Origin: Escherichia phage p000v | Sequence record: NC_055781.1 | Strand: one strand, 5' to 3' | DNA length: 64,000 bases | Shown here: piece after piece, positions 14,993 through 20,349 of the stretch | How positions within the stretch are numbered: the stretch's first letter is position 1 | Layout: each line of letters starts with the position of its first letter | Program-made: the position numbers and the translations under genes | The notes under the pieces: model-generated | Databases searched by the model: none | Seen by the model: the letters and a program-made list of their open reading frames with translations, nothing else | Told to the model about the DNA's origin: nothing

Positions 14993-15157
14993 ATGACTAC
15001 TTTAATTATTTGGTTCGATGAAAATGAAGAAACATACTGTGTGAATATTGGTGAAAGCCCAATGCCTGAATTTGAATCCTCAGATAAAAACTCTGTTGTA
15101 TCTTGGGCTGAAGGTTATAAAGCAGCTAAAGGTGACGTTGAAATAATTTACATCTAA
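14993..15157 (+). CDS. small hypothetical protein (54 aa)
   Basis: Not in ORF track (<60 aa); GAGGAG SD 6 nt before ATG; preceded by promoter-like cassette. Confidence 0.45.
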   Translation: MTTLIIWFDENEETYCVNIGESPMPEFESSDKNSVVSWAEGYKAAKGDVEIIYI

Positions 15158-15203
15158 GTAAGTTTATGTTATAGTAGTTCTATCAAAACAAGAGGAAAAC
15201 AAA

Positions 15204-15431
15204 ATGGCTAAAGTTAGTATTGATGTCGTTGATTATGAATACACAGAAGAAGTTATTCGCAACCGTCACCCTGAAGTTCGTATCGATTCAGTACAAGATT
15301 CCAAGTTCTGGACAACTGAGCTTAATCTGAGTGGTCCTTATGAAGCTGTTAAGAAGTTCATGGTTGAAGAATACTGCGAAGGCATGCACCCCGAAGACGC
15401 CAAGTTTTATGTCAATTTGATTAAAAAATAA
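15204..15431 (+). CDS. hypothetical acidic protein
   Basis: 75-aa ORF with SD. Confidence 0.55.
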   Translation: MAKVSIDVVDYEYTEEVIRNRHPEVRIDSVQDSKFWTTELNLSGPYEAVKKFMVEEYCEGMHPEDAKFYVNLIKK

Positions 15432-15466: not shown

Positions 15467-15501
15467 GTTGGATAATAAACCACCAATTGAAAGGTAATAA
15501 T

Positions 15502-16095
15502 ATGAACACACTGAAGAAACTTGTTGAATTCATCCGCACTAAACTGGGTACTGCTATGGCTAAAAATCTGACTGTAGAAGAACAGTATAACGCAGCTGCA
15601 GATAAGTTGATTACCCAAATCAAAGAACTAAAAACGGCTTCTGTTAAATCTATTAACGAAGAAAAACGTATTCGCGAACTTGTTAATGAAAAGAACAAGC
15701 AAGCCGCTTCTAAGGAACGTGAAATTCGTAAGCTCCTGGCTGAAGGACAAGATGTTACCATGCATGCTAAGCTTGGTCTTCTGTATCGTCGAACTGCCGA
15801 ACAACTTAATACAAAAGCTGACGGTTATGCCGCTATGCGAATTGAAATTGCTCGTAAGGTGGTTGAACTTGATGATGCTCGTCAGAACCTGGCAATCAAA
15901 CTCGAATACATTCGTGAAACTCGAGCAGCCAATGCCCTTGGTATCTCTACGGCTGATGATGTGATTGAAATTGCTGCACTGACTAAGGTTGATATCGAAG
16001 ACACTCTGACTCGTGTCGAAACATTCAATGGCACTCCAGCCGGTGTCGAAACCACTTCTGCTGATGTACAAGAATATATTAACTCTTTGAAATAA
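15502..16095 (+). CDS. coiled-coil protein, possible PspA/IM30-like
   Basis: 197 aa, start MNTLKKL with AAAGG SD; long amphipathic heptad-rich helices; resemblance to PspA is architectural only. Confidence 0.55.
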
Positions 16096-16103
16096 AATAA
16101 TAC

Positions 16104-16125
16104 GGAGGACTCCGGTCCTCCTTTT
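16104..16125 (+). terminator. intrinsic terminator
   Basis: GGAGGAC-UCCG-GUCCUCC hairpin followed by TTTT. Confidence 0.75.
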
Positions 16126-16144
16126 GGATAATAAAGGAGTTAAC

Positions 16145-16747
16145 ATGCGAAACCAAAATAATGATATTGACTCAATGTTCGAAGAGTTCCGAGATAAGGT
16201 AAATCCACCTACGTCTTTAGTTGATTCATTACGATATGTTGCAACTGGGCGTAAATGGTACTGGTCGTCTTCTTATGAGACCACCGAGAAAACAGCTAGC
16301 CATAGCAGAAAATCTTTATTGGCCCCGGGTATTATGATTCATGATATCGGAGCTATTGCTAAACTAGTTGCAGACCATGATATTAGATTCACTGATTTCG
16401 TTGCTCCTACGTGGTCTGTTTGTTGTTTAAACACTGAATGGGAATATATCAGCGAACGCTCTGAAGATTATTATGGTTTTAGAGATAAGCTTCTGAGGTC
16501 TAATATGTTTTATATCGATACAGAAGTTCTAGTCGATAATAAAAAATATTACTTTACGTTAATCATCGATTCTGAAACTATGTATGAAGGCAAGCCTTTG
16601 CTTAAAAGAGTTGATGCTTTAAGTGCTATTGATGCGCTTTATGAAACTATGGTTGTTAGTCCTAATTTCACTAACAATTTAATCCTTGAGCAATTTATTA
16701 TGGAATGTAGAGAATATGTCAAAGCCAACCCTATACATGCCAAGTAA
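16145..16747 (+). CDS. hypothetical protein
   Basis: Start at ATG 16145 with AAGGAG SD; 200 aa. Confidence 0.6.
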   Translation: MRNQNNDIDSMFEEFRDKVNPPTSLVDSLRYVATGRKWYWSSSYETTEKTASHSRKSLLAPGIMIHDIGAIAKLVADHDIRFTDFVAPTWSVCCLNTEWEYISERSEDYYGFRDKLLRSNMFYIDTEVLVDNKKYYFTLIIDSETMYEGKPLLKRVDALSAIDALYETMVVSPNFTNNLILEQFIMECREYVKANPIHAK

Positions 16748-17108
16748 GCCCTGGGCGTATGAATACAAGCGTAAATTAATCCCAAATGAAGTACTATTTG
16801 GCCCTATTTTAGCTTTAGCATTTTTAATCTTTATGATTATAGGAGCTGTTTTAGATTCTAGTGAAGTTATATCGTCTGATGCAGCATTTTCATTAATGTT
16901 CGTCGCACCACTTATTATACCGTTTTTATTAATGCCTATTAACTGGATGGGATATTGGTACCAAGGACGTCATCACAGAGCCCGATTAAGAGAATGGAAA
17001 GTTCAGTGCGCAAAAGCCCAAGCTCAGTATGATGAAGCTGTTAAAAAGTATGAATATGAAGAAGCTATGGAATTCGTTAAGGAAATAAGATGCAAAAGCC
17101 TTAACTGA
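16716..17108 (+). CDS. small membrane protein with C-terminal EFVKEIRCK-type tail
   Basis: Two hydrophobic helices; overlaps previous gene end; start uncertain (16716 or 16737). Confidence 0.5.
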   Translation: MSKPTLYMPSKPWAYEYKRKLIPNEVLFGPILALAFLIFMIIGAVLDSSEVISSDAAFSLMFVAPLIIPFLLMPINWMGYWYQGRHHRARLREWKVQCAKAQAQYDEAVKKYEYEEAMEFVKEIRCKSLN

Positions 17109-17117
17109 ATTTATGCT

Positions 17118-17147
17118 GTTTACGCTTCTCAAATGATTAGTTATAAT
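17118..17147 (+). promoter_or_regulatory. early-type promoter (GTTTAC / TATAAT)
   Basis: 18-bp spacer; upstream of tandem paralog triplet. Confidence 0.55.
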
Positions 17148-17206
17148 GAACTCCTAGCTAAACGTGAAAATGAAACAATCGAAAACTTTATTAAGGAATG
17201 TAGAAA

Positions 17207-17512
17207 ATGAGTAAGATTATTGAAATTAAAGTACCAGAGTTTAATGATGCCAAATCCGCTTCAGATGCAATTTATAAACTTCTGAATCAAGCTGAACGTA
17301 TCGAAGAAGAAGCAACAAAGATCGCAGACCAATACGCTGTATCGTTTTCTGTAGGTGATTATGGTAGCGGTCGTACTTATTATCCTAAGGGTGAAATCGT
17401 ATCCCAGTGGATGAAAAATGAAATTGAAAATAATGGTGGCGACGTTAAGCGTGAAGGTAATGGTTACGTTATTACTGAAGGTGCTTGGGTTTCGTCTTCT
17501 GCGTTGTGCTAA
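17207..17512 (+). CDS. small protein, paralog 1 of tandem family with C-terminal GWVSSSxxC motif
   Basis: Ends GAWVSSSALC; first of three tandem ORFs with related tails. Confidence 0.65.
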   Translation: MSKIIEIKVPEFNDAKSASDAIYKLLNQAERIEEEATKIADQYAVSFSVGDYGSGRTYYPKGEIVSQWMKNEIENNGGDVKREGNGYVITEGAWVSSSALC

Positions 17513-17521
17513 GGAATCATT

Positions 17522-17794
17522 ATGTCTAAAGAACAAACCGAACTGGCTGAAGCCGTAGCAAAAATCTATGCAGCTATTGAGGCTGCCAAAGAAATTGCTA
17601 ATAAACAAAACACAACATTCGACTTGTATCCAGCTTATGGCATGGGTGGAACCTATCATTCACCAGGACATCTTAAAGCCGATCTTGAACGTTGTACAAA
17701 AAACGGCTATGCTGAATGGGCTGACGTTTACCAATACGACTACAACTTGAGCCTTGAAGATGGCGGTTGGGTTGCATCTTCTCACACTTGTTAA
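17522..17794 (+). CDS. small protein, paralog 2 (C-terminal GGWVASSHTC)
   Basis: 90 aa; shared C-terminal motif and SD context. Confidence 0.65.
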   Translation: MSKEQTELAEAVAKIYAAIEAAKEIANKQNTTFDLYPAYGMGGTYHSPGHLKADLERCTKNGYAEWADVYQYDYNLSLEDGGWVASSHTC

Positions 17795-17803
17795 GGAAAT
17801 CAT

Positions 17804-18001
17804 ATGTCTCGTGAATTAGATTGTGCTGTACGTACAGCAGTAGCTGCCCTAGAAAACCTGTTCCAGATTGCAACCGAAGAGCGTGAAGAAGTTACATTGT
17901 GGATTGAAGATAACGCAGGTCTGAATCTCCAGGACGCAATCTCGTTATCAAATAATAGTATTACTGTTCAAGGCTGGGTATCATCTAGTTATTCTTGCTA
18001 A
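17804..18001 (+). CDS. small protein, paralog 3 (C-terminal QGWVSSSYSC)
   Basis: 65 aa; shared C-terminal motif. Confidence 0.6.
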   Translation: MSRELDCAVRTAVAALENLFQIATEEREEVTLWIEDNAGLNLQDAISLSNNSITVQGWVSSSYSC

Positions 18002-18005
18002 AACA

Positions 18006-18043
18006 GTTTACAACAAGATAGGGCTATGTTATAGTAGTCCTAT
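18006..18043 (+). promoter_or_regulatory. early-type promoter with inverted repeat GATAGGGCTA/TAGTCCTATC (PeSL-like)
   Basis: GTTTAC, TATAGT; near-identical to cassettes at 10680 and 19298. Confidence 0.6.
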
Positions 18044-18063
18044 CAAATTAAATGGAGTCTACA

Positions 18064-18303
18064 ATGATTTATTATGAAAGTATCGGAACCGAAGTAGTTG
18101 CTAAAACTATTACTCGTGAAAAGTTTGCAAAGATATTCGATATGCGTTATAAAAAATCTGAACACAAAGGCATCCGATTCGAAGATGCGCACTGTACAAT
18201 TTGCCCTTATAATGAAGACATAAACGGTACAATCGTTCCATTGGTAGAGGCTTCACATGATGACCTCTGGGATGAATATAATATCGCATGTCGCGAAATT
18301 TAA
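18064..18303 (+). CDS. hypothetical protein
   Basis: Start set at MIYYESIG (GGAG SD 6 nt upstream); 79 aa. Confidence 0.55.
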   Translation: MIYYESIGTEVVAKTITREKFAKIFDMRYKKSEHKGIRFEDAHCTICPYNEDINGTIVPLVEASHDDLWDEYNIACREI

Positions 18304-18328
18304 GTAATCTAAATTCGAGGAAATTATT

Positions 18329-19285
18329 ATGATGTTAGTTATTGGTTCTCGTGCACTTCACTATCACGGCCTTATTGATTCTAGCGCTATCAAAAATAGT
18401 GATTGGGACTTTATTGCGGACCAAGGTTCTTGGAATGTATTCAAAAATCAAATGATGGGCGTATATGTTCACCAAGATAACCCTGATGTCCAAGTTTTCA
18501 AATGCTTCCATAATGGACGCGAAACTCATTTTGAAGCATACATTGTTCCGGCAATCACTAATGTCCGTGAATTAGTCGGTGAACTCACTCCTGAAGATTT
18601 CACGTCTTCTTATGACCTTTTAAAATACGCCAAGAAAAATTTGACTAAAGACCGTTTGAACGGGTTTTACTGGGCAACTCCTGAGATGTGTCTTGCAATT
18701 AAGATGTCTCATCGTTTCAAGAAAAATAATCCATTCTTTTTAAAGACTATGAACCATATTCAGTATCTTCGTGGTAAAGGTGTTACACTGAACGATGAAC
18801 TTACTGAAATTATGCTGAAACGCCAGAAAGAAACCTTGAATTATGCTCACCCGGTTCTTGACACTTCTAAAAGCGCATTCTTTAAAGATGACATCTACAC
18901 ATACGATCATGATACTATTCACGAAGCCATTGCACTAACAGACCGTCCAGCGTATACATTTTATATGAAAGATGGTTCTGAAGTCATGACCTCACGCGAG
19001 AAGTTCGAATCATTACCGGAAATGGTCAAATTGGCCGGCGTATACGAAGAATCATGTGTACTAGCATTAGAACGTTCTCAGATTCCTAATAACTTTGAAA
19101 TCCATCCACGTGATAGTTTTATGATAGCTCTTGAAAAGGTCTGTACTTCAATCACGTCAGGCTGGTTCCGTGAGTATGCCTGGGAGAACTATGGCAAAGT
19201 AGTAAGTATGTATCAAAGCTTAGGACATGACGATTATGTCAAACGTTTCAAACAAAATTTCCATATGGTAAAACCTTTCAAATAA
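18329..19285 (+). CDS. hypothetical protein (318 aa)
   Basis: Long ORF with GAGGA SD; no confident motif. Confidence 0.65.
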   Translation: MMLVIGSRALHYHGLIDSSAIKNSDWDFIADQGSWNVFKNQMMGVYVHQDNPDVQVFKCFHNGRETHFEAYIVPAITNVRELVGELTPEDFTSSYDLLKYAKKNLTKDRLNGFYWATPEMCLAIKMSHRFKKNNPFFLKTMNHIQYLRGKGVTLNDELTEIMLKRQKETLNYAHPVLDTSKSAFFKDDIYTYDHDTIHEAIALTDRPAYTFYMKDGSEVMTSREKFESLPEMVKLAGVYEESCVLALERSQIPNNFEIHPRDSFMIALEKVCTSITSGWFREYAWENYGKVVSMYQSLGHDDYVKRFKQNFHMVKPFK

Positions 19286-19297
19286 CTTCACAAAACT

Positions 19298-19334
19298 GTT
19301 TACAACAAGATAGGACTATGTTATAGTAGTCCTA
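19298..19334 (+). promoter_or_regulatory. early-type promoter with inverted repeat GATAGGACTA/TAGTCCTAT (PeSL-like)
   Basis: GTTTAC, TATAGT; same cassette family. Confidence 0.6.
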
Positions 19335-19355
19335 TTAAAACACGAGGAGAATATT

Positions 19356-19661
19356 ATGAAATTAGGCGAAACCAACCGAATTGGTCTTTTAACAATATTT
19401 GCATCACCTTTTTACGCAGCTCTTTCTGTTGCAGTATTACAAAAGGCTTACGATATGGATGGTGTTCCTGGTTGTATATTCTTATCACCATTTTTGTTAT
19501 TCGTTGGAGCACTGCTATTATACGCCACGACTAGTTTCGACCATAATGTCTGGGTTAATTATAAATGTAAATTGTCTGAAGAAGAACACGCAGAAGCTCG
19601 TAAAAAAGCTATTGAATCTACCAATCTAGAAAATTTCATTAAAGAATGTCGAGGAAAATAA
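19356..19661 (+). CDS. small membrane protein with C-terminal ENFIKECRGK tail
   Basis: Two hydrophobic helices; GAGGAG SD. Confidence 0.6.
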   Translation: MKLGETNRIGLLTIFASPFYAALSVAVLQKAYDMDGVPGCIFLSPFLLFVGALLLYATTSFDHNVWVNYKCKLSEEEHAEARKKAIESTNLENFIKECRGK

Positions 19662-19662
19662 T

Positions 19663-20349
19663 ATGAATAGTTCTAAAGTGTTTAATAGTCAAGCTCGTGC
19701 AGTAGGTGGTTTCGCTGGCCGTATCAGTAATGATAAAATTAAAAATGAGCCTATGTTCTTCAACTGCGACCTGAAGTTTGCTTTTGATAACGGCGGTCCT
19801 ATCACTCGTTCTTTCATCATGAATCTGCCTGATGACTGGAACACTAATGAAGTAGTATTCGATTCACGTGTTCATATGCTTATGCCTGGCTGGTATCCTG
19901 CTATTCCTGGATACCACCATGACGATGTTCCTCGCCCTGATATTCCAGTCGGCCAACACTTTATTACTGCAGGACAACCTGACTATGATAACCCTCGTTA
20001 CCATTCTGAACATATTCTTGGTCTTGTTAACGCTGACGTGTGTCCTACTCATTTTGCAACAGGAACTGCAGAGTTCAGTCAGATTCCTGATGGCGAACTT
20101 ATCTATCGCCAGTGGCACAAAGAAGTCCTCGAAAAAATCGAAAAAGGCGAACTAGAGAAATGGGAAGCTCCAGACCGTACTCTTCTTCAGTTTGATTGGC
20201 AAACATGGCACACTGGTTCTCGTGCAATTAGTAATGGATGGCGTTGGTTCGGGCGTGTATCTCGTAATACAGACCGAGTTAAAAAGATTACCAATGAAAT
20301 TCGTGTCAACGCTCAAGTTTATCTAGAATTCCCTATGGAAGGCTGGTAA
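19663..20349 (+). CDS. hypothetical protein (228 aa)
   Basis: ORF immediately following previous stop; Trp/His-rich; no motif recognised. Confidence 0.6.
   Translation: MNSSKVFNSQARAVGGFAGRISNDKIKNEPMFFNCDLKFAFDNGGPITRSFIMNLPDDWNTNEVVFDSRVHMLMPGWYPAIPGYHHDDVPRPDIPVGQHFITAGQPDYDNPRYHSEHILGLVNADVCPTHFATGTAEFSQIPDGELIYRQWHKEVLEKIEKGELEKWEAPDRTLLQFDWQTWHTGSRAISNGWRWFGRVSRNTDRVKKITNEIRVNAQVYLEFPMEGW

Follow-up and report, generated by a model that had tools for sequence, protein, structure and literature searches.

Tandem small proteins with a conserved W-x-x-S-S-x-x-C terminus are genetically linked to a putative nucleotidyltransferase in large lytic phages

Pol-beta-type nucleotidyltransferases (NTases) are defined by the signature hG[GS]...[DE]h[DE]h...h[DE]h and include enzymes dedicated to small proteins. 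In the MNT-HEPN system (MntA-HepT), a minimal NTase AMPylates its small partner protein, and GlnD, a uridylyltransferase/uridylyl-removing enzyme with NTase and HD domains, acts on the small protein PII. In toxin-antitoxin (TA) systems of the AbiE/MenAT type, the antitoxin gene precedes the gene of the NTase toxin. Small proteins are also substrates in the biosynthesis of ribosomally synthesized and post-translationally modified peptides (RiPPs), where the S-aminovinyl-cysteine (AviCys) of the epidermin type is formed on S-x-x-C-COOH with the Cys necessarily in last position and labionin cores contain Ser/Ser/Cys triads. RlaP NTases (PF10127) add one or two nucleoside monophosphates to damaged RNA 3' ends (bioRxiv 10.64898/2025.12.29.696909; PMC7824862). 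The present study concerns a locus of Escherichia phage p000v that resembles each of these systems in part. Within the analysed window, a stretch of 64,000 nucleotides from sequence record NC_055781.1, three tandem open reading frames (ORF1-3) encode small proteins sharing a C-terminal tail, W-x-x-S-S-x-x-C, and are followed by a gene (referred to as partner gene) for a protein composed of the domains DUF7277 and DUF7275. Judged from their genetic linkage, the array of tail genes and the partner gene form a two-part module that recurs between unrelated large lytic phages.

The three consecutive ORFs agree exactly with the initial annotation in coordinates, lengths and terminal sequences (Table 1), and of the 354 ORFs of 40 aa or more present in the six frames of the window, no others end in the tail pattern. 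Beyond the tail, similarity is weak but significant (pairwise BLASTP E-values of 1e-4, 6e-4 and 2e-3), and upon trimming of the last 10 residues ORF1-3 and other tail-bearing ORFs still form one single-linkage BLASTP cluster via a common N-terminal helix; by these alignments the paralogy of ORF1-3 is real, though weak outside the tail. ORF1 (E 1.8e-22) and ORF2 (E 2.2e-18) match phrog_899 and ORF3 matches phrog_4882 (E 1.1e-36), both of which have no function assigned in PHROG. Scans of ORF1-3 against Pfam, NCBIfam and PADLOC yielded no significant match, and a PDB sequence-profile search with the small family returned chance matches to designed helical proteins only. The matches of ORF1 to Peptidase_S78_2 and E217_Gp32 (E 0.004-0.009) were under the cut-off and taken as chance. 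Each of the three ORFs is preceded by an AAGGAA Shine-Dalgarno (SD) sequence, both spacers are 9 nt long, and the stop codons overlap the SD of the next gene (TG[CT]TAAGGAA), so that ORF1-3 are probably translationally coupled. The promoter-like site upstream of ORF1 (Table 1) would direct early expression of the triplet.

Relatives of these proteins were retrieved in small number by word-indexed searches and as 582 clusters (50 % identity, E <= 1e-3) by an exhaustive profile search, the clusters comprising nearly exclusively proteins of 70-110 aa with the profile match reaching the last residue. The retrieved homologs have a median length of 85 aa, a pI of 4.5 and a net charge of -8, and the distribution of their sequences is phage-restricted. 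The family consensus consists of an N-terminal amphipathic helix, the motif F-x5-YGMGGTYYP, an acidic variable linker and the end G-x-W-x-[SAP]-S-S-x-x-C. Conservation of the tail in other phages, on which the initial annotation had made its proposal depend, is pronounced: the pattern is present in 249 of 256 retrieved homologs, and Cys is the very last residue in 240 (~94 %). Of the 179 unique ORFs that make up the arrays of related loci, 134 carry the 8-mer W-x-x-S-S-x-x-C and 36 the 6-mer W-x-x-S-S-C, the universal elements being Trp, a Ser three residues on and the terminal Cys (core W-x-x-S-(S)-x0-2-C-COOH). Across 7120 ORFs in 78 related loci the pattern was matched 232 times, nearly always in homologous arrays and about six times elsewhere. 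The tail is kept on bodies that are diverged or devoid of the central domain, short members such as ORF3 lacking the YGxG domain altogether.

In 104 distinct 24-nt tails, the two invariant Ser positions use all six Ser codons (TCN, AGY) and the Cys both of its codons, indicating that the peptide is what selection acts upon. This codon usage excludes the tail being a DNA-level repeat or the coding 'shadow' of a downstream SD, as does the tail of ORF3, to which no gene is coupled downstream. In 42 members the acidic linker contains further, degenerate motif copies ([DE]WxSS or WxxSxC), e.g., ...RWESSSEGWESSSEGWVSSSSQC and ...DWDSSGCEWDNSGC...GWNASSAHC; such internal copies are typical of a recognized linear motif rather than a fold element. 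In a subtype of 72-74 aa the short tag is doubled by internal duplication, with internal DWLSSSC or DWQSSSC and terminal IWESSSC or VWHSSSC (loci L003, 3388-3612, and L086, 3413-3631). A secretion or lipidation signal was discarded, since the proteins are acidic and soluble and have no signal peptide.

The bodies preceding the tails had been described as diverged and helical. They are diverged, but not simply helical: the AlphaFold2 (AF2) model of ORF1, built from a 9-sequence alignment with a mean predicted local distance difference test (pLDDT) score of 91.6, places a long helix of 29 residues against a small, five-stranded beta-sheet. In this model Trp94 is located in the last beta-strand (pLDDT ~87) and SSALC forms a short terminal turn, the predicted tail thus belonging in part to a hairpin of the fold itself instead of being freely appended. 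Fold searches of PDB and BFVD with the ORF1 model revealed no fold relative outside the family.

Linkage between the tail genes and the partner gene was determined from both sides. For the partner-anchored set, 72 IMG/VR loci were fetched with the partner, 71 of which have a called partner ORF. One to five tail ORFs are present in 67 of these 71 loci (one copy in 10, two in 17, three in 15, four in 8 and five in 17 loci), in every case at most ~4.5 kb upstream of the partner ORF and in its orientation. Two further loci fit this arrangement, namely L066, where the partner ORF is truncated at the edge of the contig, and L077, where a variant tail is followed by three residues, which brings the total to 69 of 72. 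For the small-protein-anchored set, 73 loci were retrieved with a back-translated YGMGGTY DNA pattern, and those small-family loci were counted whose downstream sequence measured 2 kb or more. All 25 of them contain the partner within 1.4 kb on the same strand, including L114, an apparent exception that proved to be an ORF-boundary artefact; beside the ~20 unrelated ORFs matching the YGMGGTY pattern by chance, the partner is never found. All six contig look-ups agree, i.e., Pseudomonas phage UNO-G1W1, Xanthomonas jumbo phage XbC2, Ralstonia jumbo phage RsoM2USA and three metagenomic phage contigs of mutually different surroundings. Yersinia phage fHe-Yen9-01 harbours four tail genes in a row together with the partner.

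The linkage extends across at least six unrelated genome contexts (ribonucleotide reductase/glutaredoxin, Rnl1/PNKP, SIR2, RNA polymerase/PTH2, DsbA and DNA ligase). After removal of module genes and overlapping ORFs, no other co-travelling ORF family was detected in more than two of seven synteny groups. Since the pairing is kept while the neighbours differ, the pair moves as a unit independent of context. The initial annotation, which did not mention the partner gene, proposed a shared tag for binding, modification or processing; with a tag for binding or modification, the arrays should be genetically coupled to a single conserved protein of enzyme-like character, as is the case here. In terms of comparative genomics, tail conservation and coupling to one partner speak for this putative tag. 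The likewise proposed tandem diversification fits the copy number of one to five between related phages, its arms-race part being conjecture.

The partner protein matches DUF7277 (E 3e-27, 95.5 bits) and DUF7275 (E 3.5e-78, 262.3 bits; cut-off 27), and both domains were found in all of 24 diverse homologs. The partner is unusually well conserved: identity between the proteins of a Mosigvirus and a Xanthomonas jumbo phage is 46 %, and invariant blocks comprise IKxSHRYxxNxPxFxKT, YxHPxL, YxYDHDxIHxA, VMTSxEKF, GVYEExCVLALERSQIP and KVCTSITSGWFREYAWEN. In 18 diverse sequences, G6, S7, D25, D27 and E69 are the sole invariant columns of the N-domain, and they constitute the catalytic signature of Pol-beta-type NTases (G-S...D-x-D...E). 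The partner half of the module is thus probably a divergent member of the Pol-beta NTase superfamily, and with a known superfamily the chemistry may be a variant of protein nucleotidylation. 'Putative nucleotidyltransferase' is also the label of Acinetobacter phage homologs in a few GenBank records. The invariant residues of the C-domain (K125, H128, K139, D193, H194, D195, H198, E240, E241, E248, R249 and K270) are largely charged or His, which suggests a second functional site. By motif, DUF7275 would display an HD-like H...HD...H...E pattern; no Pfam HD match was obtained for it even at E <= 5. Searches with PADLOC models returned chance-level hits only (E >= 0.007) for the module proteins and no known defence or anti-defence family. 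Pairing of Cys272 of the partner with the tail Cys was rejected, the clade of L065-L071 having tail genes but no Cys272. The partner was detected in 732 phage records, covering phages of Escherichia, Klebsiella, Enterobacter, Aeromonas, Acinetobacter, Pseudomonas, Stenotrophomonas, Vibrio, Streptomyces, Gordonia and others, and in merely three contigs of metagenome-assembled genomes (MAGs) among 185,579 bacterial and archaeal genomes; from this distribution it is phage-restricted.

By analogy, the module would work most like the protein-directed Pol-beta NTases with dedicated small partners, i.e., MntA-HepT and GlnD-PII, while its organization resembles RiPP precursor/maturase cassettes. With MNT-HEPN it shares a domain with NTase signature (G-S...D-x-D...E) encoded beside one or more small partners, and possibly, if the proposal below is correct, protein nucleotidylation. 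In contrast to MNT-HEPN, the small proteins of the module have neither a HEPN domain nor an Rx4-6H motif (ORF1 is devoid of any His), the proposed acceptor is a Ser in a C-terminal tag instead of an internal Tyr, one enzyme faces one to five diverged partners, and the enzyme possesses a conserved extra domain of 190 aa. Moreover, the module is confined to phages whereas MNT-HEPN is a bacterial TA module, and no profile similarity between the two was found. As in GlnD-PII, the module enzyme is a two-domain protein with an NTase signature followed by an all-helical domain (invariant H128, D193-H194-D195, H198 and E240/E241) and with a small protein as putative substrate. It differs from GlnD by the absence of ACT domains, and the pair differs from GlnD-PII by a partner unlike PII and by a C-terminal tail as the proposed site in place of the Tyr in the T-loop. 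On the sequences compared, the module belongs to none of the described systems, as a HEPN partner, matches to PF10127 or DUF1814, lanthipeptide enzymes and residence in bacteria are all lacking.

The reading that best accommodates these findings is that the tail serves as a docking or modification tag for the DUF7277-DUF7275 enzyme, an explanation to which, taken as a whole, we would assign even chances. The partner would be a Pol-beta-type NTase whose conserved helical C-domain recognizes the W-x-x-S-S-x-x-C end of each array member, and a nucleotidyl or other phospho-linked group would be transferred onto the invariant Ser; in a minimum version, the tail would serve the enzyme as a handle for docking. 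A single enzyme could service one to five diversifying tagged proteins, the variable bodies of which may engage different targets within infected cells. Physical recognition of the tail, Ser as acceptor, nucleotidyl transfer and the biological role are what we infer from sequence comparison. A wider version, which we put forward tentatively and consider rather doubtful, envisages a tag-directed protein-modification system in many large lytic phage lineages, where the encoded W-x-x-S-S-x-x-C tag commits an expandable and rapidly diversifying set of small, folded effectors to covalent processing by one dedicated NTase-like enzyme and the chemistry is Ser nucleotidylation, protein-primed nucleotide addition or a Ser-Cys crosslink. 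Such a system would represent a protein-level equivalent of a RiPP precursor/maturase cassette, serving host takeover or counter-defence.

If the tail indeed acts as substrate or docking tag, the module would be a very widespread and previously unrecognized one, ranging from T4-type, rV5-like/Phapecoctavirus and phiPsa374-like phages to phages of Acinetobacter, Aeromonas and Stenotrophomonas and jumbo phages of Xanthomonas and Ralstonia. It would unite an uncharacterized enzyme with a small fold and a short C-terminal recognition motif that are both new, explain the tandem multiplication of the small genes and provide a functional handle on PHROGs 899, 4882 and 2141 together with Pfam DUF7275 and DUF7277; a possibly new protein-modification chemistry or a portable 8-residue tag-enzyme pair could also follow. 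The literature search found no publication mentioning these PHROG families, DUF7275/DUF7277 or the tail motif, and as an organization the module appears to be new in kind, its enzyme half probably belonging to a known superfamily. The module genes are present in phages kept in laboratories, among them RB69 relatives and BASEL phage Bas47.

Several observations weigh against a tag that is read by the partner enzyme. Contact or chemistry between tail and enzyme is deduced from linkage, and the NTase assignment from five residues. Neither of the two domains was connected with a characterized family by profiles of Pfam, NCBIfam, PADLOC or PDB: no curated NTase family and no second family of any kind matched in Pfam (24 homologs, E <= 5), no NTase family matched in NCBIfam, PDB profile searches with the whole partner and with the N-domain alone gave chance matches only, and the single-sequence AF2 model of the partner (pLDDT 37.6) is unusable. 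With Trp94 lying within the last strand of the fold, conservation of the tail could be partly structural. A few members extend 1-11 residues past the Cys (CN, CS, CR and, in L080, 'WDSSTDQCNLDPDYMDYL'), so that a free Cys carboxylate is not absolutely needed. In RB69 itself, the ORF1 homolog RB69ORF139c is truncated at 71 aa, ends in ...SQWYEK and lacks the tail, which implies that single array copies are dispensable or decaying. Finally, a distant and shorter partner clade of ~250 aa, with KKTITSLTKGW in place of KVCTSITSGW (L083, 3878-4968; L084, 3818-4962; L085, 3360-4417), is devoid of tail genes. Its members, among them KVP40.0037 (Vibrio), Annadreamy gp196 (Streptomyces) and Yvonnetastic gp16 (Gordonia), always adjoin another conserved protein of 98-120 aa (...RYFxKT..Y...FVEVxPxQKTIxxY), which may be an alternative partner.

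The linkage is equally expected if the NTase acts on some other substrate (RNA ends, a host protein or a small molecule) and the small acidic proteins inhibit it, chaperone it or confer specificity as its subunits, the tail docking without being modified. Their acidity agrees with such a regulator- or antitoxin-like role, as does the small, though different, partner of the distant enzyme clade, and the placing of the small gene(s) before a gene with NTase signature mirrors the order in antitoxin-toxin pairs with NTase toxins such as AbiEii and MenT. The module enzyme, however, has no DUF1814 match, and the genes upstream of it encode no DNA-binding antitoxin domain, are multi-copy and are C-terminally tagged. 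Up to five diverged copies per enzyme would be unusual for a stoichiometric inhibitor, and internal motif repeats as well as an invariant Ser-Ser close to a terminal Cys are more substrate-like. TA systems, moreover, reside in bacterial chromosomes and plasmids, whereas the module enzyme is known from the 732 phage records against the three MAG contigs; we regard this explanation as unlikely, though as the foremost of the alternatives. Distinctly unlikely, in our judgement, is an RlaP-like function, with the enzyme as RNA-end NTase in tRNA/RNA repair or tRNA metabolism of the phage and the tail proteins being accessory or targeting host components on their own. Like RlaP, the Pol-beta NTase associated with RNA ligases in phages as well as bacteria, the enzyme is a phage-borne stand-alone NTase candidate of ~250-320 aa that in some phages is encoded near RNA ligase/PNKP genes: Rnl1 and PNKP are located within 5 kb in Xanthomonas phage XbC2, an RNA ligase gene two genes upstream in Streptomyces phage Annadreamy, PTH2 is near in L080, and tRNA clusters are close by in the present phage type and in Gordonia phage Yvonnetastic. 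But a ligase within 5 kb was found only in XbC2 and Annadreamy, RNA-repair neighbours vary among the contexts whereas the tail array is the constant neighbour, the enzyme matches neither PF10127 nor another NTase model, and the invariant, terminal tail would be left unexplained.

Tandem precursor-like genes with variable bodies, a C-terminal Ser-Ser...Cys and one conserved adjoining enzyme gene are also reminiscent of lanthipeptide/AviCys RiPPs. The tail could then be a core peptide, in which the invariant Ser, once activated, is eliminated to give dehydroalanine and then takes up the last-placed Cys, forming a lanthionine- or AviCys-type ring, i.e., a C-terminal macrocycle on a folded protein. 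The end S-x-x-C-COOH of the 8-mer, present in 134 of the 179 unique tails, has the AviCys spacing of epidermin-type peptides, and the strong preference for Cys in last position would be accounted for. Pfam scans of the window genes at 15487-20349, however, detected no LanB/LanC/LanM/LanKC, LanD-type flavoprotein, radical-SAM enzyme, leader protease or exporter, and the called genes and precomputed Pfam matches of six other loci are likewise devoid of RiPP machinery. The would-be leaders are folded, conserved domains of 60-170 aa, the products are cytoplasmic and acidic, and 6-mer tails such as WxPSSC and WNTSYC permit only i,i+1 or i,i+2 rings, at variance with known ring sizes. Furthermore, we know of no precedent for an elimination driven by nucleotidylation, and such a crosslink is considered very improbable. 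Least probable of all is the absence of any functional coupling, with the tail as the last strand and the cap, both conserved, of an old fold that all paralogs inherited and the enzyme as a chance syntenic neighbour. The position of Trp94 in the modelled terminal strand would agree with it, and the clustering of tail-trimmed ORFs means that common descent accounts for the shared tail. Against it stand the bidirectional linkage across contexts that share nothing else, the retention of the tail by short members that have lost the whole central domain, and the strictly terminal cytoplasmic Cys and the internal repeats, neither of which is explained by folding needs.

The p000v locus is situated in a variable early-gene region with a tRNA cluster on one side and nudE/e (lysozyme) on the other. 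Mosigvirus relatives (RB69-like, T4-type), e.g., Shigella phage Shf125875 and Escherichia phage CCU7, are 97-98 % identical over the region, and all locus genes are labelled 'hypothetical' in every inspected record. The features of the locus are compiled in Table 1.

Table 1. Features of the tail-gene locus in the p000v window (positions refer to the 64,000-nucleotide stretch)
Feature	Position	Strand	Description
Promoter-like site, sigma-70/T4-early type, TTTACG-17-TATAAT	17119-17147	+	Consensus scan 10/12; inside the 98-nt gap upstream of ORF1; predicted function
ORF1	17207-17512	+	101 aa, pI 4.7, ATG; full-length member with N-terminal helix, F..YGxGxTYYP beta domain and tail GAWVSSSALC
ORF1 tail tag WVSSSALC	17486-17509	+	Read from sequence
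ORF2	17522-17794	+	90 aa, pI 4.8, ATG; full-length member with YGMGGTYH motif and tail GGWVASSHTC
ORF2 tail tag WVASSHTC	17768-17791	+	Read from sequence
ORF3	17804-18001	+	65 aa, pI 4.05, ATG; short member with N-terminal helix and tail hairpin only, tail QGWVSSSYSC
ORF3 tail tag WVSSSYSC	17975-17998	+	Read from sequence
Repeated 68-nt cassette	18000-18067	+	TTTACA-17-TATAGT (early-promoter-like), stem-loop ATAGGRCTATGTTATAGTAGTCCTAT and SD; starts next transcription unit
Intervening ORF, RB69ORF135c type, phrog_3723	18052-18303	+	83 aa; no tail; not a conserved part of the module
Partner gene, phrog_2141, DUF7277 + DUF7275	18329-19285	+	318 aa; Pfam scan, alignments; 328 nt downstream of triplet

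The intervening ORF is absent between array and partner in Yersinia phage fHe-Yen9-01 and most other loci. In most relatives it is called with 79 aa, and its designation as 'major capsid protein' in phage HX01 is an evident mis-annotation. Further copies of the 68-nt cassette are located at 15140-15207 and 19292-19359, the three copies being 69-100 % identical, and two of them bracket the unit of 83-aa ORF and enzyme gene. The cassettes resemble the promoter/stem-loop ('PeSL') cassettes, which are described as mediating gene shuffling in T4-type phages.

Outside the module, Sir2-like genes are located 1.5-4 kb downstream of the partner in RsoM2USA, KVP40 and phage nepoznato (L079, 7568-8134; L085, 6555-7295; L086, 8603-8933), and RNA ligase and PNKP genes a few kb upstream of it in XbC2 and Annadreamy (L006, 1-2571; L083, 2064-2723). 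These neighbours are too poorly conserved to be parts of the module.

Directly upstream of the triplet, a 25-codon remnant ORF (MISYNELLAKRENETIENFIKECRK*) at 17133-17210 overlaps the ATG of ORF1. At the same position, JK45 and phage 55 possess an intact gene for a membrane protein of 119 aa (L001, 7091-7450; L002, 4091-4450), so that p000v has an internal deletion immediately ahead of ORF1-3. No support was obtained for the label 'sulfurtransferase' given to the neighbouring membrane protein in JK45. The remnant shares the sequence F-I-(K/M)-E-C-R near the C-terminus with the ORFs at 16124-16747 (...QFIMECREYV...) and 19356-19661 (...ENFIKECRGK), a looser version ends the ORF at 16686-17108 (...EFVKEIRCKSLN), and gp147 of the Yersinia phage has the end ...EFVTYCRGNK. 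A DNA repeat, TTTATTAWGGAATGTAGARAAT, at 16694-16715 and 17187-17208 includes the SD of the next gene, and F-I-(K/M)-E-C-R seems to be the protein reading of a sequence conserved at gene junctions.

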